From Nitrosopumilus sp. (GTDB lineage Archaea > Thermoproteota > Nitrososphaeria > Nitrososphaerales > Nitrosopumilaceae), in assembly GCA_965203315.1 (NCBI GenBank), contig OZ241857.1, positions 448,001-512,000 of the forward strand: a stretch of 64,000 nt of DNA. The letters are read 5' to 3'. The notes beneath the pieces are model-generated. The model was not told the DNA's origin and did not search any database. It saw nothing but the letters and a program-made list of their open reading frames with translations. The translations under genes and the position numbers were made by a program. Positions 27,878 to 44,470 of the stretch are shown one piece after another; position 1 is the stretch's first letter; every line of letters starts with the position of its first letter.

Positions 27878-28237
27878 CTATCTCCAGACACCGTAAATGT
27901 TCGTGTAAGTTTTGGCGTCTAGGGCGCAATCGACTCAAGCGTGGGCTCGGGAGGAAGGATAATTCTACTGCGAGTATAATTCCGGGAACTCTCCTAAATC
28001 CTAACTGTCACAACAAGTTGGGATAACCACCACTCTCTTGTTGATCGATATGGACTTTGATGCTGTTCTCATCGTATGGTGTGATGATCATTTGATATCA
28101 TAAGGTTTCTGAATATAGTTTTATGAGCAGACTCGTCAACCCGTATATCTTCAAACTGTAACCGCATTGTTTCGAGATTGGTCACAAGTCGGTGTTCACT
28201 AAAAGTCTTTTATTAATGAAAATCATATTGTCATGTA

Positions 28238-29044
28238 TTGAATGTAGATGAATTTGGACCAGCCCCTCGAAAGAATGGACTGCTTTATCCAGGCAAACGC
28301 CCATCACAGTCATACGTGATGTGTGGCAATAGCATATCGCTTATCAGTCCAGTATCTCCACTAAAAGACACTCTGGTATCAACCAACCATGGAACGCTAT
28401 CCTTGATAGAGTTCTTACGTCTACATGATACCGATATTGGCAACAGATATTGTGTGATTGGATACGGTTCAAACGCATGTCCTGCACAGCTGCATGAAAA
28501 ATTTAATGATGATGTATTGATCGTCTTGCGTGGTACATTACAAAACTATGACATAGTATACGCAAATGCTATAACAAAGTATGGCTCTATACCTGCCACT
28601 ATAATCGACTCACCTGGTACCACTGTACAAGTATGGTGCAACATACTAGATGAAGAACAGCTGTACACAATGGATGAGACGGAGGGTAGAGACACATCAT
28701 ATATCATGGGCAAGCTAAACGGTACAGTCAGACTAGATGGTCTCAGTAAATATGCCGCATATAGTTATGTTCATTCTCAAGGAGCACTAAACTACAAGGG
28801 TAAACCTATACGAATAGCAGATATACCTGCAACAAATCCCATCCATGACAGCTTGAATCAGATCGAGATGTTAGAACTATTCTCTAATATCATAAACGAA
28901 CCAAAAGTAGCACCAAGTTTTATCAAAGATATCATCAAATATCGAGTAAAATATACTAAAAAGCTACACGACCTATCAAAAGGCATACATTCAACACAAT
29001 TTGAGAGACTACCACGTCCTAGTGTGCCAGACACTTTTTTATAA
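28238..29044 (+). CDS. Gamma-glutamylcyclotransferase-like fold protein
   Basis: IGYGSN motif and MDETEG. Confidence 0.5.
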   Translation: MNVDEFGPAPRKNGLLYPGKRPSQSYVMCGNSISLISPVSPLKDTLVSTNHGTLSLIEFLRLHDTDIGNRYCVIGYGSNACPAQLHEKFNDDVLIVLRGTLQNYDIVYANAITKYGSIPATIIDSPGTTVQVWCNILDEEQLYTMDETEGRDTSYIMGKLNGTVRLDGLSKYAAYSYVHSQGALNYKGKPIRIADIPATNPIHDSLNQIEMLELFSNIINEPKVAPSFIKDIIKYRVKYTKKLHDLSKGIHSTQFERLPRPSVPDTFL

Positions 29045-29058
29045 TGTAGTGATACAAC

Positions 29059-29472
29059 ATGTACATGACTGATGCTGCATACAAACTTGTTCCCAAATGC
29101 ACCATTACCAGATCATTGGATGACATCAGCTGTAACATACTGGACAGATCAAAGATTATTGTTTTTTGTACAATACACAACATAGAACCACATGTCGCTC
29201 CCGTATGGTTCGCCACATACAACAATACAGTACTAGTTGGCAGTGTAAAGATATCTAAAAAGATCAAAAACATACAAAACAATCCATCAGTAGCATTATG
29301 TACGGACAATATCAGAATAACAGGCACTGCAAGTATCTCAGACGATAAAGATTTGTCGTACCAATACAAACAACTAATGCATGACAAGTATCAAGACCCA
29401 AAGATCAATCGTTTTGTTGAACACATAAAACACATTATTGTAATAACTCCAGTGAGAGTCACAACATGGTAG
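29059..29472 (+). CDS. Pyridoxamine-5'-phosphate oxidase-like (FMN/F420 split barrel) protein
   Basis: PHVAPVWF, SKKIKNIQNNPSVAL, ITGTA. Confidence 0.75.
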   Translation: MYMTDAAYKLVPKCTITRSLDDISCNILDRSKIIVFCTIHNIEPHVAPVWFATYNNTVLVGSVKISKKIKNIQNNPSVALCTDNIRITGTASISDDKDLSYQYKQLMHDKYQDPKINRFVEHIKHIIVITPVRVTTW

Positions 29473-30014
29473 AGATACTGCTAGTAGATAACGGCACTAA
29501 ATATATCAAAGATCTAAAAAACACCTTGAATGGATACAACTTTACCTGTATTGTCTATGACAAGCTGGTTGATACCAGTTTGGATGTTTTTGATGGTTTT
29601 ATCTTATCGGGAGGTAGAGGCGGTACCATACAAGATATTACAAATTACAAGATCATAGAACATTGTCACACTTGTAATAAAACCCTCTTGGGAATATGCT
29701 ATGGTTCAGAATTGTTGGCGTTATACCGTGATTGCAAGTTAGGACGTCTTTATGGACTACGTCATTTACATCAAGATATTGTAATCAACTTTACACTACT
29801 CGACAAACATACGATAAACGTCTTTTCCAGTCATAGATACTTTATCAGTGAACTGTCACCAAGTGTACACATATTGTCTAGATCAAGCATACCAGAGATG
29901 ATACACATTAAAGATACCAACATGTATGGTACACAGTTTCATCCTGAAAAGACTATTGACGGTCAAAATATCATACACGTATTATTCAATCTGTTTTCGA
30001 GATCTAAACATTGA
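29466..30014 (+). CDS. Class I glutamine amidotransferase
   Basis: LVDNG, ILSGG, LGICYG, TQFHPE. Confidence 0.85.
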   Translation: MVEILLVDNGTKYIKDLKNTLNGYNFTCIVYDKLVDTSLDVFDGFILSGGRGGTIQDITNYKIIEHCHTCNKTLLGICYGSELLALYRDCKLGRLYGLRHLHQDIVINFTLLDKHTINVFSSHRYFISELSPSVHILSRSSIPEMIHIKDTNMYGTQFHPEKTIDGQNIIHVLFNLFSRSKH

Positions 30015-30232
30015 GGATGTAAAGATACTCCAAACAGTGATTGTCATCAATATGATGGTCCATGGCACACGTCCATCGAGTATGATCTTTTGTACATAGT
30101 CGAGTAAGTCATCAGATGGTGTAGGTAATGGCGATATGTGGAATAGTGGTATAGTGACATGACGAATTAATTTCACTATTATGTCCCTTAAAACACTAAA
30201 ATTCACGCATTGACACAATTTTTAGTGATATC

Positions 30233-30475
30233 TTGAGTACAAAACACAAAAATCTTCTTCTAGCTCTTAAAAATAAAAAGTACGCGCACATACGAACTAG
30301 AATCTTTGGTGTAAAGATGGTTCTAATTGATAAAAACACAATATCACGTACAGCAAGGCATGTTGGCAGGACGGAACGTACCGTGTATAATTGGCTAAGA
30401 CGATACAAGCGAGAAGGAATTGCAGGACTAGAAGACAAACCAGGTAGAGGAAGAAAGCCACTAACACGAGTTTGA
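30233..30475 (+). CDS. Stand-alone HTH paralogous to the IS630 transposase N-terminus
   Basis: VGRTERTVYNWL..GLEDKPGRGRKP versus transposase VGVTERTVYNWL..GLEDKGGRGRKP. Confidence 0.65.
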   Translation: MSTKHKNLLLALKNKKYAHIRTRIFGVKMVLIDKNTISRTARHVGRTERTVYNWLRRYKREGIAGLEDKPGRGRKPLTRV

Positions 30476-30479
30476 CGTA

Positions 30480-31526
30480 TTATGCAACGATCTCTCTTTT
30501 TATGAATGCCAAAAGATCGAGCGTATGTCGTGTCTTTTTTAGATAGTCACGCACAGCAGCTTCCATCTCTTCAACTGTCTCATAGTATACTCCAACTTTG
30601 ATCTCTCGTTTGAGCTGATGCCAATACTCTTCGATTGGATTGAACTCGGGTATTGCTCTTGGCAGATAGACGAGTTTGATATCCTTGCCCTTGATGAACT
30701 CTTCAACATCTTCTCCTTTGTGCGTCTTGGGACCATCGAGCAGCAGTATCACTTTTTTGAAGCGTTTGTACAGGTTTTTCAGAAACTCCAAGAAACAGGC
30801 CTTGTTTGTACTCTCTACTATCTCAAAGTATTGCACTCTACCTTGACCTATTGCCCCCATTACGATCACTTTATCACGTGACCCCTTTGAGGTAGCATAT
30901 ACAGGCCTGCCTATTTTGGTCCAGAATTTAGCACCGTTCTTGGTTTCTAACGTCAAGATTGTCTCGTCCATTGCAAACAGTTTCCAACCTTTCTTCTTGA
31001 GATGTCCATACATGGACAGTACCCTTTTACGGAATGCTTTGATCTCTGGAGGTTTAGCTCGATTTCTGTATGCCGTTTGTGAACGTTTCCTTGACCACCC
31101 TAACTTTTTCATCCTCTTTCTTATCGTATCAAAGTGTTGTTTCACACCCGTCTCGTCTAAAAGTAACTTGTACATGTCTCTAGGTGTTGTTCTTTCTTGA
31201 GTGTCTAGTATTTGCTCATATGTTTCGTCAGGTATCTTGGGTTTTCTTCCACGACCACCCTTGTCTTCCAGCCCAAAAAGAGCCTTTTCGCTAAACAGAT
31301 TGAGCCAATTGTATACTGTACGTTCTGTTACTCCAACAGATTTTGCAGCAAGTGCTACTGTACAGCCATCGACTATGATCATCTTGAGAGCTATGACTTT
31401 GTGTCGTATGTGTTGGTGTTTTCTTTTCTTAAGACCCTTCTTGAGTATTTTTCTCTGTGATCCAGACCATCGTCTGGGCGATTTAGATGTCTTTGAAGTA
31501 TTGACAGATCTCTTTTTTGATGCCAT
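30480..31526 (-). CDS. IS630 transposase
   Basis: MDET, LLDG..H, PEFNPIEEYW. Confidence 0.9.
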   Translation of the reverse strand: MASKKRSVNTSKTSKSPRRWSGSQRKILKKGLKKRKHQHIRHKVIALKMIIVDGCTVALAAKSVGVTERTVYNWLNLFSEKALFGLEDKGGRGRKPKIPDETYEQILDTQERTTPRDMYKLLLDETGVKQHFDTIRKRMKKLGWSRKRSQTAYRNRAKPPEIKAFRKRVLSMYGHLKKKGWKLFAMDETILTLETKNGAKFWTKIGRPVYATSKGSRDKVIVMGAIGQGRVQYFEIVESTNKACFLEFLKNLYKRFKKVILLLDGPKTHKGEDVEEFIKGKDIKLVYLPRAIPEFNPIEEYWHQLKREIKVGVYYETVEEMEAAVRDYLKKTRHTLDLLAFIKREIVA

Positions 31527-32490
31527 TGTAATGTCTAGAACACATTAATTCATAACTTATGATGTCAAAAATAGTTGATACTGAAATTAATTTATCTTGT
31601 CACTATAGTATCACAGATAGGCCAACAATGCATAGTGGTCCAAACCCATTGATCTTCTTCTTTATTTCCCAAGCTAGATGGCGACGTATCTTTACAGGAT
31701 CACCTTGTGATATTTCCAGTTGCGCTCTAGATATTTGATCCATAAATATGAGGTGAATGCTTTTGCCCGTATCACTCAATTGTGGTATATAATCACCATC
31801 TCTAAATGGTTTAAGATTCTTATCATGATGATTTTGCATCTGTGTGCTAAGTGATGTACATTTTACAACTATTGATTTTGTGGGCGATTCTATGATTACT
31901 CGATCTCCATATTCAACATTAATCATCTCTGTCATCTCAGAACACAGAGAGACCATGGGAATCTTACTCTCACGAAATATTGGATTTGAATGTGATCTCA
32001 TCACTGCCTTTTGATAGTTTAGACGCTCTCTGAGCATAGTTGACATCTTGTTTCTAAATCGATATAATTTGCCATGCTGTCTGTTGCTTATTGTTACTGT
32101 ATTGCCAAGGTTTAATCGTAGTGCTTCTCGATATGTCTGATCAAGTGCAACTGTCTTTCCCTCAACAACTTTGGTGTTTCTAGAATACTTGTGACTGTTG
32201 GATATACATACAGCATGTATTTTTAGTCCATTATACGTCAAGAGCACTTGGTCTCTCTCACGAATCTTTTCCTTATTCATGTCGTTTTTATGTAAGATTA
32301 TTATAAAATCACACATAGGTTGAGTCGTAACATTTGTGTGCGTTACTGTTAGTTCTAGCATCGATTCATAGTTGGCACTATCTTTTAATATAGCATATCA
32401 TGTTCAAAATTGACGATTTTGTCAAAAATACTAGACAATTGATATTAGCTCTAGTACCAGATGAACTAGGCATACAAGCGAATCTACACA

Positions 32491-32826
32491 CTAGTCCAAG
32501 AGATATGACTTTGTGAGTATGTCAGATGTCCGTACACCATCAGATTCATCGTTTGTTGTTACATTTGTATTGGATTGTGGTTTATCAACAGTTTTTTGTG
32601 TATTTGTATAATCCTCTGGTTTGATACCGAGACGCAACATGTGTAGCTGCTCATCAAGATCAATTCCAAGTCTATCTAGTTTCTCTTTGTGTTCATACAA
32701 GAATGCAATGTCTTGCGCAATCTCGTCTATTCGTTTACGTAAGCGATGTTTGTACGCGTATCGTTTTGTAGGCTCCAAAGTACGTGGCGATGTAATCACA
32801 CGTTTTTCTTTGACACTTAGAGCCAT
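32491..32826 (-). CDS. Small basic helical protein, paralogue 3 downstream of the actin-like gene
   Basis: MALSVKEKRVITSP..YKHRLRKRIDEIAQDIAFL; SD gaggtg. Confidence 0.65.
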   Translation of the reverse strand: MALSVKEKRVITSPRTLEPTKRYAYKHRLRKRIDEIAQDIAFLYEHKEKLDRLGIDLDEQLHMLRLGIKPEDYTNTQKTVDKPQSNTNVTTNDESDGVRTSDILTKSYLLD

Positions 32827-32908
32827 GTTGACCACCTCGACACATTCATGGTACAGACATGTGTTCTGATCTTTGCATCTGTTTCAAAGTTCAATAAACA
32901 TCTCAAAT

Positions 32909-33244
32909 CTACCAACCTCCATTCTCCTGATATCGTCTACTCTTTGATGTGCTAGATTGTTCAATATTTGATACGGATTTGCTCTCCGTATCGGAATGTT
33001 GTGACTGAATCGTATGCGGTATGTGTAATTTATCTGGCATCTTGTATGTACAATTCAACATTGAATAGTCCTCAATCTTGATTCCAATGCCAGACAGTTG
33101 TTCAATATTATCATTTAAGAACGTCACGTCATCTTGTATCTCCTTTAGTCTTTTACGTAGGCGATGTTTGTACAGACTCTTGTTTGCAGGAGAAAATGTT
33201 GCAGGTGCGGTTACTATTTGTCTCTCTCTAATACTCAAACCCAT
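32909..33244 (-). CDS. Small basic helical protein, paralogue 2
   Basis: MGLSIRERQIVTAP..YKHRLRKRLKEIQDDVTFL; SD ggagtgg. Confidence 0.65.
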   Translation of the reverse strand: MGLSIRERQIVTAPATFSPANKSLYKHRLRKRLKEIQDDVTFLNDNIEQLSGIGIKIEDYSMLNCTYKMPDKLHIPHTIQSQHSDTESKSVSNIEQSSTSKSRRYQENGGW

Positions 33245-33311
33245 CTCGACCACTCCATATTTACAGATATTGGCTCTGTATGTGTACCTGTCTTGTAGAT
33301 CAGCAAGGGTT

Positions 33312-33611
33312 TCAAGCAGATCGACTCCTGTTATCTCGTAATCGTTTATTGGTACATTTGCAGTTTCGTTCTTTGATGTGTACGACAGACTTTGAGTCTG
33401 TATCGGATTTATCATATTTTGATATTAAAAGATAGTCATCAATTTTAATCCCCAGACTAGCTAGATGCTCAATGTTATTACACAAGAATTCTAGATCATC
33501 TGCTATCTCTTTTAGTCTAGTTCGGATACGGCGCTTGTATAATTTCTTGTTTGCAGCAGACAAGACTCCTGGCGAACTGACCACTTGTCTCTCTATATCA
33601 CTTAGACACAT
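33312..33611 (-). CDS. Small basic helical protein, paralogue 1
   Basis: MCLSDIERQVVSSP..YKRRIRTRLKEIADDLEFL; overlaps the actin-like stop. Confidence 0.65.
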   Translation of the reverse strand: MCLSDIERQVVSSPGVLSAANKKLYKRRIRTRLKEIADDLEFLCNNIEHLASLGIKIDDYLLISKYDKSDTDSKSVVHIKERNCKCTNKRLRDNRSRSA

Positions 33612-34468
33612 TTTGCCTGCCTCAACATTCCTAGTGCGTTTGCAAATACTGGCTCTTTAGCTACTTGTAAATTGGATATCGTATCGTTTCTGATCTCTGA
33701 TATCAACTTTGGTATTAATGCTCCTCCGCCTGCACATATTACAGGTAGGTTTGAATAATTTAAAACGACCTTTTCTAATGCATTTGAAATCGTACCTGCT
33801 AAAACTTTACGATACTGTGCTAGCTCGTTATCTCGTCTCTGAAATACAGTACTGTCTAGATACTCTACCATCGAAGTAGATATGGCATCTGTGATATCTC
33901 CAACTCCGTTCATTATAGTCTGACCATACGCAATATCGTCTCCAATCACTACCATTATCTCGGTTGTACCGTGGCCGATATGACATACGATACCATTCTG
34001 TATATTCTCATGTATCAGAGTGGCGCGTGCTTGGTACATCATTCCAAAGAACTTTGGTTTGAATCTCTCTACAACTGCAGCCTTGATCTGTTTTGATTTA
34101 TGTCGAGCTACATAAGGTATACCTGCGACTATAATCAAATCTTCATAGCTCTTTGGAGCATTATAGATGGGTTCTGTATGCGCCTTGAGAACTCTGTCCA
34201 AGGCATGTTGTATCAGAGCTAGATAGTCTCTCATGGATGTAGGCGCACCTCTATACACGGGAGTCTTTAGAACTATGGAGCGAATCGGTTCTAGCTTTAC
34301 TGCCGCATCACCTACTGCATACACTTCACTAGATTGATTGAGATCTAGTTTGTGCCCTCTTGCAATAACTGATGGAAACTTGAACTGTTGTGTACTGGTT
34401 GCGACCTTGACAGTCCCAGTCCCAATGTCTAGTCCAACTGTATTCAGATTCAACAATCTATACAGCAA
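33602..34468 (-). CDS. ParM/MreB-like actin-fold ATPase
   Basis: Phosphate-1 GLDIGTGTVK, FPS, phosphate-2 HIGHGTTE, adenosine AGGGA, ANALG. Confidence 0.85.
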   Translation of the reverse strand: MLYRLLNLNTVGLDIGTGTVKVATSTQQFKFPSVIARGHKLDLNQSSEVYAVGDAAVKLEPIRSIVLKTPVYRGAPTSMRDYLALIQHALDRVLKAHTEPIYNAPKSYEDLIIVAGIPYVARHKSKQIKAAVVERFKPKFFGMMYQARATLIHENIQNGIVCHIGHGTTEIMVVIGDDIAYGQTIMNGVGDITDAISTSMVEYLDSTVFQRRDNELAQYRKVLAGTISNALEKVVLNYSNLPVICAGGGALIPKLISEIRNDTISNLQVAKEPVFANALGMLRQAKCV

Positions 34469-34857
34469 GTTTTGAATTTAAAGCGAAAAAAATACTCCAA
34501 AGATCTTACATAATAGTAGATGAAAATCTTTGAGCATTGTGGAAGATATTTTTGCTCGCAAAACAACCATAACAAAAACCTCCTTAATACAACAAATACA
34601 CTACTAGGCGTAAAAACAGCAAAACACAGCTAACATTTGAACGATAACACGATTAACCTTATCGTCAAGATTAGACGACAAATCGATCTCTGCAAACCAA
34701 AATCAAACCATAGATCTACTATCACGGTGTAAGATTATTCTGGATTTCCTCCTTTGAAAAATGTCTCAATCCGCCAAGAATTCACAAAACTTTTGCAGCT
34801 GTCAAGTATCACCGTGTTTAGTTCAAGGTTAGCTTTTGCTGTCTCAATTGAAAAGAG

Positions 34858-35553
34858 ATGAATCGTACAAAAGAATCCAAACCACAACACAGCACGGACT
34901 GTCCGACATACACACCACCAAACTGTTCACGTGCACTTCCAACAGATACCGAACCAAAACGCAATCTAATAAAATACCTGCCAATCGGTCTGAGTATAAT
35001 TGCCCTAGTATGTGCAATCGTTCTCACATATCCGAACTGGAGCGACAGCGCAACATCTCTACTAGGTGAATTCAAAGAAGGCAGTGTCTCATTTGGAGAG
35101 AGGCTTGAATCATTTGGTAGAGGAACATCAACAGCTTTTCACAACTCTTTCCTACAAGATGAATCTACAGAGATAGAATCTCCAAATGTAGACATAATCC
35201 GTGTAGGTGCAGCTGTAGTAAAACACACAGACAAACCAATAACAAACACAACAGCAGCTAGTACACTAACAAACGCAACGACAGTCAACACAGAAATCCA
35301 AACCAACAATACAAAAAACAAACAATACACAGCATCTAGTACATTTGAACAAGAGATGTACAACTGTCTTTTGCGGACAGGTGGACTAGAAGCAGTTGTA
35401 ATGTGCGAACGAGAAGGTACCATGTACTTTGTTGTGGATGAGCCCCAAGATACAGCAGTTCGATATCAGACCAATCTAACCATTGCCGATGACAGATACT
35501 TTGTCATTTATGAGCAGGGTAGAGAACAACACATCCTCGAGTTGTATCCCTAG
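34858..35553 (+). CDS. Single-TM hypothetical protein with a Thr-rich linker
   Basis: One hydrophobic segment; followed by hairpin tgcca-gtaa-tggca and a T-tract. Confidence 0.6.
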   Translation: MNRTKESKPQHSTDCPTYTPPNCSRALPTDTEPKRNLIKYLPIGLSIIALVCAIVLTYPNWSDSATSLLGEFKEGSVSFGERLESFGRGTSTAFHNSFLQDESTEIESPNVDIIRVGAAVVKHTDKPITNTTAASTLTNATTVNTEIQTNNTKNKQYTASSTFEQEMYNCLLRTGGLEAVVMCEREGTMYFVVDEPQDTAVRYQTNLTIADDRYFVIYEQGREQHILELYP

Positions 35554-35631
35554 AGCTCAGCATGCCAGTAATGGCACATCCTCTCTTTTTTCTAATTTTA
35601 CAATACAATCTTGAAATTTTACGCTACCCAC

Positions 35632-35726
35632 AGGGGCGAGACAGGCGATGATTATTCACCCAGCACTGAGAGAGTTTGACCCCTCTCAATGATGAATCTG
35701 GCGTTGTATGAGTCCTCGAATCCCCT
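35632..35726 (+). ncRNA. Box C/D guide RNA A1 (BHB-flanked)
   Basis: C ATGATTA, guide ttcacccagca, D' CTGA, gagag/ctctc hairpin, C' ATGATGA, guide atctggcgttgt, D ATGA. Confidence 0.8.
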
Positions 35727-35767
35727 ACTTTATAATTCTCACTTTTCGCCAGATTTGGCTTTTGTAA

Positions 35768-35834
35768 AGTGAGGGCGATGATGAGAGAAACGACGTCTGA
35801 CTCTGATGGGCGTTACGATAACTGAGCCCTCACT
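35768..35834 (+). ncRNA. Box C/D guide RNA B1
   Basis: 9-bp stem agtgagggc/gccctcact, C ATGATGA, gagaaacgacgt, CTGA, C' CTGATGG, gcgttacgataa, CTGA. Confidence 0.85.
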
Positions 35835-35868
35835 GTATGTACATTTCTTCTAACTATTAACTGTAATC

Positions 35869-35960
35869 GGGCGAGACAGGCGATGATGAGACGGAGCTAT
35901 ATGAGAGGGCATAGCCCCCTCAATGATTAGAGCCTGTTAATCAGAGTCCTCGAATCCCCT
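35869..35960 (+). ncRNA. Box C/D guide RNA A2 (BHB-flanked)
   Basis: C ATGATGA, gacggagctat, D' ATGA, gaggg/ccctc hairpin, C' ATGATTA, gagcctgttaat, D CAGA. Confidence 0.8.
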
Positions 35961-36001
35961 ACTTAATAATTTTCACTTTCAGCCAGATTTGGCTTTTGTA
36001 A

Positions 36002-36070
36002 AGTGAGGGCGATGATGAGAGAAACGAAATCTGACTCCATGATGAGTTACGACTAGTCTGAGCCCTCACT
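36002..36070 (+). ncRNA. Box C/D guide RNA B2 (all four boxes consensus)
   Basis: agtgagggc-g-ATGATGA-gagaaacgaaat-CTGA-ctcc-ATGATGA-gttacgactagt-CTGA-gccctcact. Confidence 0.92.
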
Positions 36071-36105
36071 GTCTGTACATTTCTTCTAACTATTAACTGT
36101 AATCT

Positions 36106-36196
36106 GGCGAGACAGACGATGAAGAGTAAGAACTCCACTGAGAGTGTTTGACCCCTCTCAATGATGAATGAGTTGCACAGAGTCCTCGAATCCCCT
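36106..36196 (+). ncRNA. Box C/D guide RNA A3 (BHB-flanked)
   Basis: C ATGAAGA, gtaagaactcca, CTGA, hairpin, C' ATGATGA, atgagttgca, D CAGA. Confidence 0.8.
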
Positions 36197-36236
36197 ACTT
36201 AATAATTCTCGCTTGTTGCCAGATTTGGCTTTGTAA

Positions 36237-36307
36237 AGTGAGGGCAATGATGAGTGAAACGACGTCTGACATCTAGTGATGAAAGATAACCTGTCTGAGC
36301 CCTCACT
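36237..36307 (+). ncRNA. Box C/D guide RNA B3
   Basis: Stem, ATGATGA, gtgaaacgacgt, CTGA, GTGATGA, aagataacctgt, CTGA, stem. Confidence 0.9.
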
Positions 36308-36340
36308 GTTTGTACATTTTGCTAGCTATTAACTGTACTT

Positions 36341-36430
36341 GGCCGCGACAGACGATGATTATTAACTCAACACTGAGAGAAGATACTCCTCTCATTGATG
36401 AATCTGGCGTTGTAAGTCATCGAATTCACC
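36341..36430 (+). ncRNA. Box C/D guide RNA A4, degenerate (D box and BHB eroded)
   Basis: ATGATTA, ttaactcaaca, CTGA, hairpin, TTGATGA, atctggcgttg, no clear D box. Confidence 0.6.
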
Positions 36431-36470
36431 ATGTTAGAATTATCCCTTTTCGCCAGATTTGGCTTTGTAA

Positions 36471-36537
36471 AGTGAGGGCAATGATGAGTGAAACGACTTC
36501 TGACTCTGATGAGTTACGACTAGTTTGAGCCCTCGCT
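36471..36537 (+). ncRNA. Box C/D guide RNA B4
   Basis: Stem agtgagggc/gccctcgct (G-U retained), ATGATGA, gtgaaacgactt, CTGA, CTGATGA, gttacgactagt, TTGA. Confidence 0.85.
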
Positions 36538-36569
36538 TGCTGTACATTTCGTCGAGTTATTACATCTAC

Positions 36570-36666
36570 AGGGGCGAGACAGACGATGAGGATGGATAGG
36601 AAATCTGAGGGCGTTTGACCACCTCTCAATGATGAACGAATCACATTCCGAGTCCTCGAACCCCCT
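36570..36666 (+). ncRNA. Box C/D guide RNA A5 (perfect BHB)
   Basis: agggg-cgag-aca-gac, ATGAGGA, tggataggaaat, CTGA, hairpin, ATGATGA, acgaatcacatt, CCGA, gtc-ctcg-aac-cccct. Confidence 0.8.
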
Positions 36667-36725
36667 CATACTTTCTCTACTTATTTAGGTTGAGAATGGA
36701 CACGCTTGAATCACAAAGCGCATAG

Positions 36726-37118
36726 TTGGTCATCGTAAGGACCAAAATTACAGTGAACATATTAAAACTGTTCATCTGTGTAGTCGACACAGCAAAAAAT
36801 CGTCCAAGTGTATGCAGAAATTCAAAGAGCAATGACGGATGTCTAGAATTTCTGCGACAAGATCTCAAGTATCGTGAGGCAAAGTTTGGTCTTACAGATG
36901 ACGAGCTCTACTGTATGAACTTTATCAAACTAGAGCGCAAATACTTTGAGAGAGAATCAAATTTCACACATACACGTAATGAATCTATTACGTCCTTCAA
37001 CGAGGAGTGTGCGAAATATTGTCCTACTCCCTCAGACGTTTATGGGAGTGTACGTCATTTTTACGAGCACTTGGACAAACTAGAGAGAATGCGAGAAGTT
37101 AATCGACAATTCGTATGA
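36726..37118 (+). CDS. Hypothetical protein; may be a pseudogene starting at ATG 36696 with an in-frame TAG
   Basis: 130-aa ORF directly after the array; no Nop or nuclease motif recognised. Confidence 0.45.
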   Translation: MVIVRTKITVNILKLFICVVDTAKNRPSVCRNSKSNDGCLEFLRQDLKYREAKFGLTDDELYCMNFIKLERKYFERESNFTHTRNESITSFNEECAKYCPTPSDVYGSVRHFYEHLDKLERMREVNRQFV

Positions 37119-37285
37119 TCTCAAATCACCTATTTTTTGGTGACTGGACAAAAATCTCATAACCACAATACTCTTGAAAAAGAGCCGACCAGCGGGTGGG
37201 TGTGGAGATAGTGAACCATATTGCATATCCTACTGTACGATCCTAGTTCAAGGAGTGTAGGCTGAGTGTAACAATTGAAAAAAGC

Positions 37286-37894
37286 ATGAGCGACGAAAAA
37301 ACCAACAGACTATCTCGTAGAGAACAGATTCGCAAGTCTCTCAGAGACAATACAAAGTATACGTCGATTCTAACTGCAGGTGTATCGGCACTTGTGATGG
37401 GAGTTATGGCACTACTTGTAACTCCACCAGAACAAGATGCATATGCGCTAGCAATCATGGGAATCGGCATATCCTTTATTATCGCAAGTATCGTAGGGCT
37501 GATAATGGCATCGCAGACAGATGAGATTGCAGCTCGTATTTATGAGCGATTCGACAGACAAGATGAATTAGCAGAGAGACGTCATCAAGAGATGATATCA
37601 GTACTCAAAGAGATATCCAATAAACTAGACGCATTAGACAAGCTAGACAAGCTAGATGTCATGGATAGTAAACTGGACGTCATAGTCAACAACACCACCA
37701 AACTGGATGTCATAGTCAACAAACTAGACACCATAGACAACAACACCACCACCAAACTGGATGTCATAGTCAACAAACTAGACACCATAGACAACAACAC
37801 CACCACCAAACTGGATGTCATAGTCAACAAACTAGACACCATAGACAGTAAACTAGACACCATAGACAACAACACTAGACCATCTAATGCGTAG
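37286..37894 (+). CDS. 2-TM coiled-coil repeat protein, copy 1 (202 aa)
   Basis: Two TM helices, GISFIIASIVGLIMA..ERFDRQ, KLDVIVNKLDTIDNNTTT repeats. Confidence 0.8.
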   Translation: MSDEKTNRLSRREQIRKSLRDNTKYTSILTAGVSALVMGVMALLVTPPEQDAYALAIMGIGISFIIASIVGLIMASQTDEIAARIYERFDRQDELAERRHQEMISVLKEISNKLDALDKLDKLDVMDSKLDVIVNNTTKLDVIVNKLDTIDNNTTTKLDVIVNKLDTIDNNTTTKLDVIVNKLDTIDSKLDTIDNNTRPSNA

Positions 37895-38079
37895 CAAAAA
37901 ACCCAAAATCTTTTTTCTCGACTGAGACGTAAATCCCAAACCCGCATGGAATTTCTAATTTCCCCACACACTAGACTCAGCTAGGCAGGGTGTGCGGATT
38001 AACTGAACCATATCTCATATTCCTGTACGTATAATCTAGTTCAGAGAGTACCAGGTTGAGTGAGACAATTGAAAAAAGC

Positions 38080-38658
38080 ATGAGCGACGAAAAAACCAAC
38101 AGACTATCTCGTAGAGAACAGATTCGCAAGTCTCTCAGAGACAATACAAAGTATACGTCGATTCTAACTGCAGGTGTATCGGCACTTGTGATGGGAGTTA
38201 TGGCACTACTTGTAACTCCACCAGAACAAGATGCATATGCGCTAGCAATCATGGGAATCGGCATATCCTTTATTATCGCAAGTATCGTAGGGCTGATAAT
38301 GGCATCGCAGACAGATGAGATTGCAGCTCGTATTTATGAGCGATTCGACAGACAAGATGAATTAGCAGAGAGACGTCATCAAGAGATGATATCAGTACTC
38401 AAAGAGATATCCAATAAACTAGACGCATTAGACAAGCTAGACAAGCTAGATGTCATGGATAGTAAACTGGATGTCATAGTCAACAAACTAGACACCATAG
38501 ACAACAACACCACCACCAAACTGGATGTCATAGTCAACAAACTAGACACCATAGACAACAACACCACCACCAAACTGGATGTCATAGTCAACAAACTAGA
38601 CACCATAGACAGTAAACTAGACACCATAGACAACAACACTAGACCATCTAATGCGTAG
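38080..38658 (+). CDS. 2-TM coiled-coil repeat protein, copy 2 (192 aa)
   Basis: As copy 1, 10 aa shorter. Confidence 0.8.
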   Translation: MSDEKTNRLSRREQIRKSLRDNTKYTSILTAGVSALVMGVMALLVTPPEQDAYALAIMGIGISFIIASIVGLIMASQTDEIAARIYERFDRQDELAERRHQEMISVLKEISNKLDALDKLDKLDVMDSKLDVIVNKLDTIDNNTTTKLDVIVNKLDTIDNNTTTKLDVIVNKLDTIDSKLDTIDNNTRPSNA

Positions 38659-38843
38659 CAAAAAACCCAAAATCTTTTTTCTCGACTGAGACGTAAATCC
38701 CAAACCCGCATGGAATTTCTAATTTCCCCACACACTAGACTCAGCTAGGCAGGGTGTGCGGATTAACTGAACCATATCTCATATTCCTGTACGTATAATC
38801 TAGTTCAGAGAGTACCAGGTTGAGTGAGACAATTGAAAAAAGC

Positions 38844-39368
38844 ATGAGCGACGAAAAAACCAACAGACTATCTCGTAGAGAACAGATTCGCAAGTCTCTC
38901 AGAGACAATACAAAGTATACGTCGATTCTAACTGCAGGTGTATCGGCACTTGTGATGGGAGTTATGGCACTACTTGTAACTCCACCAGAACAAGATGCAT
39001 ATGCGCTAGCAATCATGGGAATCGGCATATCCTTTATTATCGCAAGTATCGTAGGGCTGATAATGGCATCGCAGACAGATGAGATTGCAGCTCGTATTTA
39101 TGAGCGATTCGACAGACAAGATGAATTAGCAGAGAGACGTCATCAAGAGATGATATCAGTACTCAAAGAGATATCCAATAAACTAGACGCATTAGACAAG
39201 CTAGACAAGCTAGATGTCATGGATAGTAAACTGGATGTCATAGTCAACAAACTAGACACCATAGACAACAACACCACCACCAAACTGGATGTCATAGTCA
39301 ACAAACTAGACACCATAGACAGTAAACTAGACACCATAGACAACAACACTAGACCATCTAATGCGTAG
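38844..39368 (+). CDS. 2-TM coiled-coil repeat protein, copy 3 (174 aa)
   Basis: As copy 2, one 18-aa repeat shorter. Confidence 0.8.
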   Translation: MSDEKTNRLSRREQIRKSLRDNTKYTSILTAGVSALVMGVMALLVTPPEQDAYALAIMGIGISFIIASIVGLIMASQTDEIAARIYERFDRQDELAERRHQEMISVLKEISNKLDALDKLDKLDVMDSKLDVIVNKLDTIDNNTTTKLDVIVNKLDTIDSKLDTIDNNTRPSNA

Positions 39369-39533
39369 CAAAAAACCCAAAATCTTTTTTCTCGACTGAG
39401 ACGTAAATCCCAAACCCGCATGGAATTTCTAATTTCCCCACACACTAGACTCAGCTAGGCAGGGTGTGCGGATTAACTGAACCATATCTCATATTCCTGT
39501 ACGTATAATCTAGTTCAGAGAGTACCAGGTTGA

Positions 39534-39857
39534 GTGAGATATTTGGTGTATGGAATGCCATCCCAAATAGCAAGCGTAGGCGTGATTACGCATGACCGAG
39601 AGAACAAACTCGGTAAACAAATGTGCGCAGATATTCAAGTAGAATATCGGTGTAGAGTCAGCTGTGACGGTAGTTATGGAATGCTCGACATGTATGATAT
39701 CGAGTGTGATGACTGCATGACCAGATGCGAGTCTACATACACGATTCTCTTATTCGATGTGATAAGAGATGACGATTCAGCACTCCTAGCTCGATATCAA
39801 ACTAGAATCGAACTAGCACGACTAAGGCGCATACTAGATTTACTAGAACGAATATAG
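39534..39857 (+). CDS. Small Cys-rich hypothetical protein
   Basis: CRVSC..CDDC; start uncertain. Confidence 0.45.
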   Translation: MRYLVYGMPSQIASVGVITHDRENKLGKQMCADIQVEYRCRVSCDGSYGMLDMYDIECDDCMTRCESTYTILLFDVIRDDDSALLARYQTRIELARLRRILDLLERI

Positions 39858-40634
39858 TCTATGTAAATACTAGTCAAACCAATTTTTTCCTCTATTTTCT
39901 TTGAGGCTTGTACATCTGATGAGATATCATGTGAGTGGTTGTATATTGTTGATTCCACATTACATCTTTTGAAAGATCAGCGTGTTTACCAATCTTGTAG
40001 AACGAGATACAGATTGGTTATTTCATCTGATGATAAACTAGGACATCAAACAAGGTGTCAGTCCCAGAGGGACGAAAAATAGCCATGTCTCATACTCCTA
40101 TCATTTCGAGCCAAGCTAGTGGCGATAGGTTGAGAGAGAAGTGCAGGTGATTGCTATGCAGTTAGAAAGCGTAGATACACTCGTTTACGACGAGTATAAA
40201 CCGCTTGAGGGCTATGCCGTAACGTGCACGTCTTGTGGTTCTGAAGCAGAAGTACATACGCGCAAAAAGACGGGGCAGTCTTTTAGATGCTTTGTCTGTG
40301 AACCACGACGTACACGATTCGGCTAGTTTCCGAGTTCACACATAGTGTGATGATTGACCAATACAAGATATTATATCTCGTAATTGTTACTACACATCTG
40401 TTAGTCACAAGTATAATATCACGTTTGGTTTAACCCATGTATTTTTTTAAAAATACAAAATAGTTTCCAAATCTACTATACCTAAATGGTTAGCTCGATG
40501 TAGATTTGAAACAGTCGTCTGAGATATCAGATAGAGAGACATGTGCCACAAGTATAGAAGGTACAAATGTACACGCGAGTCACCGCTGCTCGGCGGGCGT
40601 CTATACTGTGTGGATATAAAAAGGAGGAATCCAA

Positions 40635-41903
40635 ATGAGCAAATTACACACAATCGTTGGTTTCAAACAGACCAACAAAGTTGTTCATAAATTGAACAGC
40701 AAAGCTGTTTCCAATGGAAGCAGAATAGTCTTGAATAGAGACTATCAAAAGAGTACACGCAAAAACTATAAGAGAATTGGCAAGAAAGAGCAATTCGACA
40801 TACCTGAACAGAAACTGTTGCAAAAGATGCAAAAGTTTCTCTACCAAAATACAACGTACAGAGGCAAACCACGCAAGATCGTCTACAACAAGATAACCAA
40901 AGAGGATAGAATGGTCATAGTGTTTTCTATAAAGGTCACTCTACAGTATGATCCGCCATCGATATGGGCCATAAAGATATTTGATCAGAGTGATCACATA
41001 GTACACTATGAAGAAGAAAAGCCAGTAGAGACATTCAAGGTTATAGTAGGTGTATATGATCAAAGCAAGCTGTACTGTATGCGTACTAGAAAGTTTAGAA
41101 TGCCGACAAAATATGACAAAGTATATGATCCAAACGATCTAGTCAGTATACGTGACAGTCACTTATGTACATCCTGCAACAGATGGTACAAGAGTCCCGA
41201 TTCAGACAAGTGTTTCTGTGGCACTCCACTAAAAAAGATAGAAAGAGTATGTCACAAAGACAACATACAGTATGATGATGAATATTTGATCGAAAAGAGA
41301 TGTCTGCAAGAGATCGAGTATCAATCTGTCGCACCGCGTCGCAGATCATCTAATCGTAGAACAACTGATAGTGAGTTTGTACCACAGTACACAACAAATA
41401 CAGTACTAGACCACTTGGACATAGAACTAGAAGATGAACCACCAGTACCGCTAACAGTACAACAGAGTGCCGCACAGAACAAGCTAGATTACATCTGGAA
41501 CAAGAACTGCGTTCTAGGAAAGACGTGCATCATAAAGCAGTACGGCGAATACAAGATGTCACCTGATCCCGAAAATCAGCAAGCACTACGTTCGCACATA
41601 TACAACTGTACAAAAGATCCAAATCGCAATCTGTTCGATGTTGTAGTTGATGAGACCGAGTCTGTAAAAACGTCCACGATATCATCTACAGATTCACAAC
41701 CAGATCTATATCACAGAGACCCAGAAAAGATAAGAAACGATCTAGTTACACACGACTTTGAACTATCTCAAGATGAGATCGAACTGCTAGATGTACCATA
41801 CTGTACACTAGACTGTGATGGTAAAAACAGATTTTGGAACCTAGTCAACAAGGCTCGTCGCAACCAGAAACAGTTCAACGTTGTATACAAACTTGTACAA
41901 TAG
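40635..41903 (+). CDS. Hypothetical protein with a Zn-ribbon
   Basis: 422-aa ORF, CTSC..CFCG, SD aggagg. Confidence 0.7.
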   Translation: MSKLHTIVGFKQTNKVVHKLNSKAVSNGSRIVLNRDYQKSTRKNYKRIGKKEQFDIPEQKLLQKMQKFLYQNTTYRGKPRKIVYNKITKEDRMVIVFSIKVTLQYDPPSIWAIKIFDQSDHIVHYEEEKPVETFKVIVGVYDQSKLYCMRTRKFRMPTKYDKVYDPNDLVSIRDSHLCTSCNRWYKSPDSDKCFCGTPLKKIERVCHKDNIQYDDEYLIEKRCLQEIEYQSVAPRRRSSNRRTTDSEFVPQYTTNTVLDHLDIELEDEPPVPLTVQQSAAQNKLDYIWNKNCVLGKTCIIKQYGEYKMSPDPENQQALRSHIYNCTKDPNRNLFDVVVDETESVKTSTISSTDSQPDLYHRDPEKIRNDLVTHDFELSQDEIELLDVPYCTLDCDGKNRFWNLVNKARRNQKQFNVVYKLVQ

Positions 41904-41948
41904 AGATGGCGTGTATCTCAAACCCACATCCCATTTTTGAGGATAAAA

Positions 41949-42770
41949 ATGAGTCAAGTAAGAACCTCTGAGAAAGCCAGAGAGATACTAGTCGAACTAG
42001 CAGAAAAGTTCGGCAAGACCGAATTCGTAGACAGTTCGGCCAAGATGTTGATAGATGCTCGTACATATGCAAAGCCATCGAGCTCATGGTCATTGGGTAA
42101 TCAACTAGCAATGTACTTTGGTGGTACCATGGATGCAAGAGGATACAATCAATGGAACGCAGTAGGACGACATGTCAAGAAAGGAGCAAAGGCAATCTAC
42201 ATTCTAGGTCCAATGACTAGAAAGATCGAGCCCAAGGAGGGTGAAGACGAACGAATCATAATAACTGGATTTAGAGCGATACCCGTATTCCGATTCGAAG
42301 ATACAAAAGGTAAACCACTAAAAGAGTACAAACCCAAGACACTTCCACCGTTGTATCATCTAGCAGAAGAGAATGATATCAAGGTAGAGTATATCGAATC
42401 TAGACATGGTGAATATGGTTCGATACACATTCCAACAAAGAACATGACGCTGAGTACAGAGTCGCCGGATACGTTCTTGCACGAACTGATGCATCTATAC
42501 GACAACAAGAGTCAAGAACTGAAACCAGGACAAGACCCCATACAAGAGACTGTAGCACAGCTTGGTGCATGTGTTCTAGCCAAGATGTATGGATATGACG
42601 TAGAGGCACATACATGGAACTATATCTCAGCATATGCGGGTTCAAAAGATCCCAAAGCTGTTGGCAACATGTGCTTCAAGGTATTACAACGTGTTCAGCT
42701 AGCAATAAACAAGATACTAGATGATGCACAAGAACTGAAACCAATCGAGGCAAGTATAACAAAGATGTAG
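41949..42770 (+). CDS. ArdC-like antirestriction protein (ssDNA-binding domain plus zincin HExxH domain)
   Basis: WSLGNQL, GYNQWNAVGRHVKKGAKAIYILGP, PVF, LHELMH, ETVAQL. Confidence 0.8.
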   Translation: MSQVRTSEKAREILVELAEKFGKTEFVDSSAKMLIDARTYAKPSSSWSLGNQLAMYFGGTMDARGYNQWNAVGRHVKKGAKAIYILGPMTRKIEPKEGEDERIIITGFRAIPVFRFEDTKGKPLKEYKPKTLPPLYHLAEENDIKVEYIESRHGEYGSIHIPTKNMTLSTESPDTFLHELMHLYDNKSQELKPGQDPIQETVAQLGACVLAKMYGYDVEAHTWNYISAYAGSKDPKAVGNMCFKVLQRVQLAINKILDDAQELKPIEASITKM

Positions 42771-43339
42771 TGTATCATGTACTATATCTGATATTGTACA
42801 CACAATATCACAAAACATGATAGTGGTGTACGGCACACCATCTTTACAAAAAAATGTTGAGATACTTTTGATACCAAAAGTATACTCCAGGAAAATCCCC
42901 TGATGATTTCACCAATTATGTAATTGGTGAATGCTCAAAATGTCTTGTAATAACAAACATTTTGGGTTGGCTCTGTCCTGTATGGGCATTGCCGAAACTA
43001 TACTCGTTAGTACGAGTATGGTCGGGAAGATGGAATCAAAAAACATTTGAACATAAATTGTGCTGTATATCGAGTACACTAATTTCAAATGTAAACGATA
43101 TAATTCGCTGGTACGGCGAGTATTCATCTTTTCAGAGTCATGCGCCACAGATGCAGCTAGTACCATAGCGCTGCAACTCTGCAGAGCTGTATCGTGTGGT
43201 TTTCCAAAAGGAGGAATAGTATGAGTACAAAATCTACAATAAAAGACACTAGATTGGAGCGCCGCGTAGATGGGCGTTATGAGACTCTGGTGCAGATCAA
43301 ATTGTTGAACAATTCAAACATTCTCATAAGATATGAGAT

Positions 43340-43606
43340 ATGAGCCATGAAAAGTTCACGCCTAAAGACTTGACAATAATCCCAAAGGATTGTAGTGTAT
43401 GTGATGGGTGTAACAAACAACTTACGGATGAAAACTTTGTTGCGATTCAAGACTGTGTGTGGTTTGAAGGATATCTGTACTGTCAAGGTTGTGAACAGAG
43501 ATACAGGCCAAAAGATGTTGGCTTGTCACTAATTAAACGTATCTGTATGGGTGATGATCTATCCGATACAGAACTTGCAAAACCAATAGTGATAGAGTCA
43601 TGGTAA
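43340..43606 (+). CDS. Small Zn-finger protein
   Basis: CDGC..CQGC. Confidence 0.55.
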   Translation: MSHEKFTPKDLTIIPKDCSVCDGCNKQLTDENFVAIQDCVWFEGYLYCQGCEQRYRPKDVGLSLIKRICMGDDLSDTELAKPIVIESW

Positions 43607-43879
43607 TAGCACATAATGTCGTTGTAAACACAATCTACAAATCTAAAAACCAACTTGATACAACAGCTTGTACGTATACACAATGACTGCAGTAGAGAAG
43701 GCAATAGAGTTGCTAGAGGGGCACCCATTCTATAACGTCCTAGTTGAATATGTTGCAACAAAAGCCACAAGATATACTCAAGCAAAGATCATATTTGACA
43801 AGAGACTTGGAGCAAGTTCAGGAACAGAAAATATGATACGTGATGCAGTATTTGATGCATTAAAACAGAGGCATGTGAG

Positions 43880-44470
43880 ATGAGATTTCGATATGGGACT
43901 ATTGGTGTTGTTGTGTTGTGTATGGGGCTAGTATTATTTGCAGCTAGTGTATTACCAAACTATCAATCAAACATAGATAAAGCCACAAACGAGATATCTG
44001 GCATAGATAGAACAACACCAAACGTTGAATCAAGTCAGGATAAAACACCAAACACCAACATCAATATAGATAGAACAACAAACATCGAAACAGATATCAC
44101 AGAACGAGATACCAGCTGCTCAATGTGTTATACGGGTATCGTAACTAGAATAGTTGACGGAGATACAATTCATGTAGATGATAATATAATACGACTTGCG
44201 ATGGTCGATACTCCTGAACGAGGTGAGTCAAACTATGCTGCCGCAACTGCACATACTAGATCTACATGCCCTATTGGTACAACAGCACTAGTTGATATAG
44301 ATGATCTGCAGATACAAGATCGTTATGGCAGACAGATAGCAAAGGTGACTTGCAGCGGTACAATACTGAACGAATCACTACTAGTATCAAATCTCGCAGA
44401 CGTGTATCACTACTTTTGTTCAAGGTCAGAGTTTGCGAGTGAACCTTGGTTGAACAACGAATGCACATAG
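43880..44470 (+). CDS. Membrane-anchored thermonuclease (SNase family)
   Basis: TM segment, VDGDTI, RLAMVDTPE, DRYGRQIA. Confidence 0.9.
   Translation: MRFRYGTIGVVVLCMGLVLFAASVLPNYQSNIDKATNEISGIDRTTPNVESSQDKTPNTNINIDRTTNIETDITERDTSCSMCYTGIVTRIVDGDTIHVDDNIIRLAMVDTPERGESNYAAATAHTRSTCPIGTTALVDIDDLQIQDRYGRQIAKVTCSGTILNESLLVSNLADVYHYFCSRSEFASEPWLNNECT

Follow-up and report, generated by a model that had tools for sequence, protein, structure and literature searches.

Box C/D guide RNAs are regarded as housekeeping genes of their hosts, numerous in thermophiles and few in mesophiles. The targets of the archaeal guides have been described to cluster in the peptidyl transferase centre, at the intersubunit bridges, in helices 68-71 and in the decoding centre (PMC7994747). 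Here we analyse a stretch of 64,000 nt of archaeal DNA (G000:C1:448001-512000, hereafter the window, with positions counted from its first letter), which carries a tandem array of nine box C/D small RNA (sRNA) units. They belong to the box C/D sRNAs, an established class of RNA whose mechanism is known.

The units are like archaeal box C/D sRNAs (Rfam sR1, sR14 and snoPyro_CD) in the box order C, guide, D', C', guide, D and in the closing terminal stem, and also in guides of 10-15 nt, in complementarity to ribosomal RNA (rRNA) in the N+5 register defined below and in hotspot targets (PMC7994747). What sets the nine apart from the usual archaeal genes is that they alternate regularly in tandem and are borne by an accessory mobile element, and that their mesophilic host has few core sRNAs; one of the two unit types, here called A, closes C'/D' with a hairpin and has a weak terminal D box, and no Rfam gathering score is reached. 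A first-pass annotation of this DNA had stated that such genes are normally dispersed singly, which is only partly true, since archaeal C/D sRNA genes have also been described in clusters of two or three and as part of dicistronic tRNA-sRNA units (Tripp et al. 2017, summarised in PMC7994747). In those clusters adjacent sRNA genes are probably co-transcribed and maturation is thought to need only kink-turns (PMC7994747), whereas here nine units, and up to 12 in a related genome (G145), share repeated scaffolds and linkers in a conserved mobile-element context.

Transposon-like multiplication, guide replacement and guides moving between D and D' are described for the miniature inverted-repeat transposable element (MITE)-like sRNA elements of the hyperthermophile Pyrobaculum calidifontis, whose copies are scattered and flanked by inverted repeats (Lui et al. 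2018, PMC6009581). By comparison, the units studied here occur as tandem arrays beside a ParM-like gene or as single units at the 5' edge of a full transposase module. TIGR-Tas systems, as described by Faure et al. 2025 (PMC12045711), have 8-12-nt edge and loop repeats, ~9-nt spacers, 36-nt RNAs with 'CCA'/'UG' boxes and an adjacent Nop-domain Tas protein, and target DNA. The array resembles them in its tandem units with two short guides each, in box C/D-like motifs and in TIGR arrays being frequent on mobile elements (PMC12045711). It differs from them in its RUGAUGA/CUGA boxes, guides of 10-15 nt, units of 65-97 nt, linkers of 31-40 nt and lack of an adjacent Tas gene. In plants and trypanosomatids, tandem repeats of different C/D guides share one precursor and are eukaryotic chromosomal core genes. 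Such polycistronic small nucleolar RNA (snoRNA) clusters, which are cited in PMC12045711, are alike in being tandem clusters of different guides, whereas here the guides are cargo of a prokaryotic mobile element. We found no paper linking C/D sRNAs with plasmids, integrative elements, archaeal viruses or ammonia oxidisers, and a survey of integrated elements of Thaumarchaeota (PMC6563490, main text) contains no occurrence of 'sRNA', 'snoRNA' or 'non-coding'.

Nine units of two alternating types

Tandem Repeats Finder returned one array at 35666-36636 (period 234, 4.1 copies, 75% matches, score 984). Reading and alignment resolved nine units at 35632-36666, all on the plus strand, with five A units strictly alternating with four B units (Table 1). 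A units are 92-97 nt and B units 69-73 nt long, and the linkers measure 31-40 nt. The period of ~237 bp with alternating units given in the first-pass annotation agrees well with start-to-start distances of 235, 236, 236 and 231 nt between A units. At E <= 1, Rfam gave 39 sub-threshold matches in 35500-36800, all of them to C/D-box (sno/sca)RNA families on the plus strand, including archaeal sR1, sR14, sR11 and snoPyro_CD; the best was sR1 with 26.7 bits and E 1.9e-4, the gathering score being 45.

Judged by their sequence, the B units are textbook, canonical archaeal box C/D sRNAs. An 8-bp stem (GTGAGGGC/GCCCTCAC) and a 3-nt bulge lead into the C box ATGATGA, a 12-nt guide and the D' box CTGA, followed by a loop of 3-7 nt, the C' box TGATGA (TGATGG in B1), a second 12-nt guide and the D box CTGA (TTGA in B4), which abuts the stem. 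With these boxes, stem and bulge, all of B1-B4 show the terminal C/D kink-turn motif. Their folding is much more stable than that of shuffled sequences (z = -4.1 to -4.7; 0 of 200 shuffles fold equally well). In an alignment of 49 distinct B-type RNAs from several genomes, which was fitted to the model, 96.4% of the terminal-stem cells are paired, compared with 35-63% in slid controls. Three of the eight stem pairs are changed on both sides, and compensatory double changes occur in 44 cells; none of 500 shuffles was as high.

The A units follow the same plan with another scaffold. A stem CGAGAC/GTC(C)CTCG and a 4-nt bulge precede the C-box core GATGA, a guide of 13-15 nt and the D' box CTGA (ATGA in A2); then come a hairpin GAGAG...CTCTC, AAT, the C' box AATGATGA, a guide of 10-12 nt and a degenerate D box, which reads ATGA, CAGA, CAGA, TAAG and CCGA in A1 to A5, respectively. 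The best kink-turn of these units is the internal, canonical C'/D' one, formed by D' CTGA and the stem GAGAG/CTCTC followed by AAT and GATGA; the hairpin has 5 bp, and in A2 one of its pairs is switched from A-T to G-C. The terminal C/D motif is present only in part (GAUGA core, an NNGA D box in four of five units and a bulge of 4 nt). Over the whole array, D' is CTGA in eight of nine units and a TGATGA-like C' is found in all nine. The boxes, stems and spacing therefore bear out the archaeal C/D sRNA layout that had been read in this DNA, in canonical form in B. The claim that every unit is a closed C/D unit stands for layout and stems and is weakened by the poor D box of the A units and by A4, which looks decayed.

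The A-to-B linkers contain an AT-rich TATA-like box and a palindrome whose columns are invariant in all four of them, and such a linker may serve the B units as an internal promoter or operator. The palindrome lies ~10 nt downstream of the TATA-like box and includes 7 nt complementary to the D guide of A1; it could be an operator, mark a processing site or act as a terminator. A contig of one public run (X4) joins 35747 to 35982 and omits exactly one A-B period of 234 nt, which may represent copy-number variation or a collapse of the repeat during assembly.

Guides diverge faster than scaffolds and linkers

Among the A units, pairwise identity is 100% in the C-box core, 90% in the D' and C' boxes and 81-89% in the stems, the degenerate terminal D box (52.5%) being the exception among scaffold elements, while the two guides are only 36% and 33% identical. 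Stems and boxes of the B units are 88-100% identical, their D' guides 83% and their D guides 39%. The linkers of the array show 79-85% identity. A similar relation is found in the two arrays of another genome of the genus, G172, where linkers are 92-98% and guides 61-66% identical. Fixed scaffolds with variable guides, as initially reported, are thus found for the A guides and the B D guides; the B D' guides depart from this picture. As the guides have diverged far beyond the non-coding linkers, neutral decay after tandem duplication cannot explain the pattern. These identities amount to a cassette-like behaviour, with scaffolds that stay fixed and guides whose turnover far exceeds that of the linkers.

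Guides match functional centres of the host rRNA

The guides were scored against the rRNA of the same genome (small subunit, SSU, C1:295869-297355; large subunit, LSU, C1:297496-300486). Positions were converted to E. coli numbering by global alignment to K-12 rrsH and rrlH, in which the local contexts are plainly homologous. As methylation register (N+5) we took the rRNA nucleotide that pairs with the fifth position of the guide, counted upstream from the D or D' box. Of the 16 distinct guides in the window, six match rRNA in at least 10 of the 11 nt nearest the box, compared with a mean of 0.65 and a maximum of 3 in 60 shuffles. Seven of the 16 form at least 9 contiguous Watson-Crick pairs covering N+5, where ~0.9 would be expected from the shuffle rate of 4.7 per 81. 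When all 81 unique guides from arrays and insertion sequence (IS) copies were taken together, 20 reached at least 9 nt (4.7 in shuffles) and seven at least 10 nt (1.0 in shuffles).

In 16S rRNA, the D guide of A1 (ATCTGGCGTTGT), which is identical in A4, pairs over 10 nt with SSU 922-931 and puts N+5 at SSU 925, the equivalent of C970. The D' guides of B1 (9 nt, SSU 1361-1369), B3 (GTGAAACGACGT; 10 nt, SSU 1361-1370) and B4 (9 nt) address C1407 (SSU 1364), and B2 carries at this position a degraded copy with a 7-nt match. G1494 (SSU 1441) is addressed by the D guides of B2 (GTTACGACTAGT; 9 nt, SSU 1440-1448) and B4 (9 nt), the corresponding guide of B1 having just a 7-nt match near SSU 1443. 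In 23S rRNA, the D guide of A2 (GAGCCTGTTAAT) pairs over 10 nt with LSU 2542-2551 (N+5 at LSU 2544, A2451) and the D' guide of A5 (GGATGGATAGGAAAT) over 10 nt with LSU 2604-2613 (N+5 at LSU 2608, C2515). Weaker matches are those of the A3 D guide (8 nt to SSU 1276, A1319, or 8 nt plus a GU and 1 nt to LSU 855-864), of the A3 D' guide (10 of 11 nt at LSU 831) and of the B3 D guide (10 of 12 nt at LSU 2211 with an internal mismatch). The D' guides of A1 and A2 and the D guide of A5 are orphans.

The same sites recur from different scaffolds and genomes: LSU 2544 is addressed from three scaffolds, with a recurring guide theme ACAGCCTGTTA, and SSU 924-927 from A-type, B-type and IS-borne units, with the themes ..GGCGTTGAT and ..TCTGGCGTT. 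A further recurring theme, TTCCATTCATT, has an 11-nt match to LSU 2066 (A1969). We take C1407 and G1494 to be paired partners atop helix 44 in the decoding centre, A2451 to belong to the peptidyl transferase centre and 964-971 to be the loop of helix 31 at the P site. Two guides of one archaeal sRNA aimed at neighbouring nucleotides are typical. The location of the array targets at the decoding and peptidyl transferase centres fits the known archaeal pattern (PMC7994747).

Across 40 tRNAs, the longest guide match was 7 nt. Complements of the guides were not enriched in the DNA of the window (mean longest match 8.94, compared with 9.17 in shuffles) nor in the genome, where just three non-self 12-mers were found. 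Since there is no enrichment in DNA and no tRNA match beyond 7 nt, ordinary 2'-O-methylation of rRNA is the simplest function, and the CRISPR-like programmable system suggested by the first-pass annotation is not supported, the guides matching, where assignable, the genome's own 16S and 23S rRNA at the methylation register.

Host machinery and host sRNAs

No Nop-domain, fibrillarin or L7Ae gene was present among the 64 open reading frames (ORFs) of the window that were scanned. The only Nop-domain gene of the genome is the host Nop5 (C1:1871476-1872108), far from the window and adjoined by fibrillarin (C1:1870635-1871279); the L7Ae-family genes are two, and these chromosomal genes likewise lie outside the window. 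Since Nop5, fibrillarin and L7Ae are all encoded elsewhere, any ribonucleoprotein (RNP) would have to be the host's, which upholds both the lack of a Nop-domain gene in the window and the dependence on host C/D RNPs put forward earlier. A TIGR reading was rejected, as neither window nor genome yielded a Tas effector, the one Nop gene being Nop5, and the repeat anatomy is different; the separation from TIGR arrays that had been drawn at the outset is correct.

Outside the array, a strict pattern gave one C/D sRNA candidate, a looser heuristic three and the B-unit model, at E <= 5, six weak matches. One of these, a genus-core C/D sRNA at C5:253429-253500 (plus strand), just after the end of a conserved ORF, is kept together with its guides in all 12 genus genomes fetched (L300-L311). 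Its D' guide has a 10-nt match to its own LSU 2600-2609 and served as a positive control for the rRNA test.

Related arrays in other genomes

The genomes searched are samples of their groups. The DNA of the array was absent from 34 of the 36 genus genomes searched first; of the two matches, only that in G009 was a related unit, a single B-like sRNA, and the other was 20 nt long (E 0.008). With the B-unit covariance model, matches were obtained at E <= 0.01 in 67 of 150 other genus genomes, mostly single core-sRNA matches of ~27 bits, and at E <= 1e-5 in 13 genomes. In an order-wide sample of 150 other genomes, a single one, from another genus of the same family, matched at E <= 1e-5. Five of the genomes carry tandem sets (Table 1), and each of the 43 units examined can be read in the order C box, guide, D', C', guide and D. 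ParM-like homologues (45-56% identity) stand beside the array at five of seven foreign array loci, which also carry nuclease homologues; in G172, G169 and G163 the nuclease gene follows the array directly. The 40 ORFs scanned at four foreign array loci contain no Nop, fibrillarin or L7Ae domain.

A short pattern, GAGGGCNATGATGAG, was also searched in genomes and viral contigs, and the matches listed are due to chance: the B model scores none of 80 viral loci and, weakly, one of 80 genome loci (21.8 bits, in a bacterial metagenome-assembled genome). A longer pattern with both stem arms had no match in viral contigs, and its two matches in metagenome contigs (~14 bits, 57% GC) are unrelated single sRNAs. 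At the G145 locus (L029), three more long-period tandem repeats lie beside the array, at 2185-2945, 3998-4974 (225-nt period) and 5956-6787 (297-nt period).

Single units linked to a transposase

With the A-type model, single copies were found in 10 of 150 other genus genomes. At seven of the 10 A-type loci, an ORF of ~375 aa with a Cys-rich N-terminus and a DDE_Tnp_IS240 domain begins 27-39 nt downstream of the sRNA, and such an ORF also follows at four of 19 B-type loci examined; over both types the distance is 27-41 nt. In both within-genome pairs compared, the shared block starts at most 8 nt from the 5' end of the sRNA and spans the transposase. This start at the sRNA 5' end indicates that the sRNA caps a repeated transposase module of ~1.25 kb. 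We also considered the sRNA stem as terminal inverted repeat of the module, but the right ends hold no third copy of the stem motif; searches for inverted repeats in the modules gave weak pairs only. Among own-genome copies of this transposase family, none of the 14 upstream regions inspected contained an sRNA. The AT-rich box after the A units of the window resembles the box that precedes the transposase in the modules, from which we infer that the arrays grew from sRNA-capped transposase modules.

Some ~10-40 nt upstream of the transposase-linked sRNAs (L035-L044, L046/L047) there is an AT-rich TATA-like stretch with a short palindrome and then (T)ATGAA(TCA) before the sRNA; the structure of the palindrome is kept, its sequence differs per copy, and the (T)ATGAA(TCA) motif is shared. 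In the genome studied here, a weak B-model match (14.9 bits) at C1:517157-517216 (plus strand) is followed ~105 nt downstream by an IS240-type transposase gene (517322) and could be an sRNA cap that has decayed.

The array lies on an accessory island

The genome (2.47 Mb, 7 contigs) encodes an archaeal AmoA, and its host is hence an ammonia oxidiser. Of 60 genus genomes sampled, 57 lack any DNA match to the 20 kb around the array (26001-46000), and the three matching genomes share just 198-468 nt inside the ParM-like and nuclease genes. The domain scan of the window describes an island rich in IS elements, type IV secretion system (T4SS)-type ATPases and restriction-modification genes, with at least nine transposase genes and many DNA methylase and restriction genes. 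On this evidence the locus is non-core and accessory, as had been anticipated, and lies in a plasmid-like island that is probably an integrated element. No integrase was found in the window, the nearest integrase-like match being a weak one at C1:412469-412801, 35 kb upstream, and a tRNA scan of the window gave no hit. The array heads a cluster of co-oriented genes, among them the ArdC-like and nuclease genes, and adjoins the ParM-like gene, in line with the leading-region-like arrangement that had been described; a 231-aa ORF stands between the array and the ParM promoter region. The nuclease is unlikely to be a processing partner of the sRNAs, since all five homologues carry conserved cysteines and a hydrophobic anchor at the N-terminus, in keeping with a nuclease of the membrane or the cell exterior.

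Three further copies of the DDE_3 IS (Table 1) are present on C1 with 99-100% identity, so that this element appears to have been active recently. Tandem repeats with a 54-nt period at 37687-37847 lie within the region of the small-ORF family, relatives of which are multicopy at foreign array loci (at least six at L031, for example). A paralogue of the TATA-binding protein (TBP) is encoded on the element and at one of the seven foreign array loci, near a G172 array (L027 9315-9854).

Table 1. Units of the array, other features of the window, and related loci in other genomes of the genus
Feature	Coordinates	Strand	Remarks
A1	35632-35726	+	A-type C/D sRNA; 107.5 bits
B1	35767-35835	+	canonical C/D sRNA; z -4.33; 84.3 bits
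A2	35867-35960	+	D' reads ATGA; 91.1 bits
B2	36001-36071	+	C/D sRNA; 93.4 bits
A3	36103-36196	+	weaker rRNA matches only; 95.2 bits
B3	36236-36308	+	C/D sRNA; 90.8 bits
A4	36339-36430	+	degenerate, terminal stem broken; 77.2 bits, lowest of the five A units
B4	36470-36538	+	D box TTGA, one G-U in stem; 85.6 bits
A5	36570-36666	+	A-type; 94.7 bits
A-to-B linker	35729-35759	+	AT-rich TATA-like box TTTATAATT and palindrome GCCAGATTTGGC
Palindrome GCCAGATTTGGC	35748-35759, 35982-35993, 36218-36229, 36452-36463		in the four A-to-B linkers
TraG/VirD4-type ATPase domains	1156-5623		window ORF domain scan
TBP paralogue	18838-19338		on the element
IS with DDE_3 transposase	30150-31608		transposase gene 30480-31526, minus strand
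ParM/actin-like ATPase gene	33602-34468	-	divergent from the array
Small paralogous ORF family with internal repeats	37286-39368; also 45042-46335, 49115-49486	array strand	downstream of the array
ArdC-like protein gene	41937-42770	array strand	downstream of the array
Nuclease gene, staphylococcal-nuclease type	43880-44470	+	N-terminal hydrophobic anchor; co-oriented with the array
MoxR-VWA pair		array strand	downstream of the array
G172			two arrays, 7 + 6 units; period ~130
G145			12 units; period 205-257
G169			4 units plus 1
G150			two pairs
G163			a pair plus single units
A-type transposase-linked loci			L035-L044
B-type transposase-linked loci			L008, L010, L011, L020
G073 pair L046/L047			shared block 1270 bp, 92% identity
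G162 pair L049/L050			shared block 1234 bp, 73.5% identity

Discussion

We consider it likely that the nine box C/D sRNA genes are cargo of an integrated plasmid-like element and guide 2'-O-methylation of rRNA by the host RNP. Transcription would proceed from the plus strand, either as one precursor starting upstream of A1 or from the AT-rich boxes of the linkers. The RNAs, whose motifs and stems are seen in the sequence, would fold into kink-turns at C/D and C'/D' and, by what is established for the family, would be bound by host L7Ae, Nop5 and fibrillarin, none of which is encoded in the window. The rRNA nucleotide opposite the fifth guide position upstream of D or D' would then be methylated; the predicted sites are C970, C1407 and G1494 of 16S and A2451 and C2515 of 23S rRNA. 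C1407 and G1494, both partners of one pair of helix 44, would be addressed by the two guides of one B-type RNA. The island thus probably adds new ribose methylations to the host rRNA. Given the few other C/D candidates of the host, the element would roughly double the methylation repertoire, aimed at functional centres, with altered ribosome stability, translation or sensitivity to ribosome-binding inhibitors as a possible benefit.

Several points speak against this assignment. Nine of the 18 guide positions have no convincing target (A1.D', A2.D', A3.D', A3.D, A4.D', A5.D, B1.D, B2.D' and B3.D), and matches of 9-10 nt to rRNA are rather short for guides. Significance is overstated by the shuffle tests, because related guides do not count as independent; the window signal comes from only five independent sites, and guides of other genomes were scored against the rRNA of the present genome as a proxy. 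The A units have a degenerate D box, a bulge of 4 nt instead of 3 nt before the G-A pairs and weak or unremarkable thermodynamic folding (z = +0.05 to -2.93). A4 looks like a decayed copy, like a pseudogene: a substitution in the 5' stem arm breaks its pairing with the 3' arm, and its D box TAAG lacks the GA. Rfam at gathering thresholds gave no match in the whole window. The count of host sRNAs rests on a heuristic and a B-type model, and divergent genes may be missed. Finally, the 2'-OH of A2451 matters for catalysis, and methylation there might harm rather than help.

Some of these observations would also fit a decaying tandem duplicate, in which an A-B pair, perhaps IS-derived, was amplified by unequal recombination and most copies are unexpressed or non-functional, with relaxed guides. 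The degenerate A4, the TTGA box of B4, the degraded C1407 guide of B2, the orphan half of the guide positions and the public contig without one period, from which copy number may vary unless the repeat is collapsed, all agree with such a history. We nevertheless regard it as improbable, because relaxed constraint alone does not give linkers of 79-85% identity beside A guides of 33-36%, because five distinct guides retain 9-10-nt matches to functional sites of rRNA, and because arrays recur in the same context in other genomes.

It has also been considered that the repeats act at the DNA level, as a parC-like centromere or protein-binding region for partition, perhaps besides encoding RNAs. In parMRC systems the parC iterons sit upstream of and divergent from parM, and the array has this position relative to the ParM-like gene in the window and at five of seven foreign loci. 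Units of 65-95 nt with periods of ~130, 234 and 205-257 nt are not short iterons, however; it is RNA motifs that are conserved, with compensatory changes in the stems, the guide segments vary, unlike a binding site, an ORF separates the array from the ParM promoter region in the window, and no ParR-like protein was identified, which makes this role very unlikely. Least probable of all is a TIGR- or CRISPR-style targeting of competitor or host DNA or mRNA by a host or other effector: fast-changing guides in fixed scaffolds on a mobile element and the nine guide positions without an rRNA or tRNA target would suit it, but no Tas or Nop gene exists in the window or among the ORFs scanned at four foreign array loci, the kink-turn boxes and unit lengths are not the 'CCA'/'UG' boxes and 36-nt units with 9-nt spacers of TIGR (PMC12045711), guide complements are not enriched in window or genome DNA, and the assignable guides match rRNA.

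Taking the array as element-borne guides for rRNA methylation, we tentatively propose, as a conjecture that we think has less chance of being right than wrong, that this family of elements profits from using the host C/D RNP to rewrite ribose methylation in the decoding centre, P site and peptidyl transferase centre of the ribosome. The gain might lie in biased translation or in a changed sensitivity to inhibitors or toxins that bind the ribosome. In bacteria, protein 2'-O-methylases of rRNA alter the sensitivity to antibiotics, such as the thiostrepton-resistance methylase at A1067 and TlyA at C1409 and C1920.

In this case a mobile element appears to supply nine further guide RNAs to a mesophilic ammonia oxidiser whose own core set is a handful, and the ribosomal nucleotides at which they are aimed are the most sensitive ones, among them A2451 and both partners of the C1407-G1494 pair. 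If the conjecture is true, methylation guides would be a mobile and exchangeable trait and not a fixed part of the host genome. The recurring arrays, their fast guide turnover and the transposase-linked form offer a natural system for the origin of new guides, in which related strains with and without arrays permit a direct comparison. Should the arrays prove active, horizontally transferred RNAs could by themselves reprogram how the ribosome is modified, and no new enzyme would be needed.

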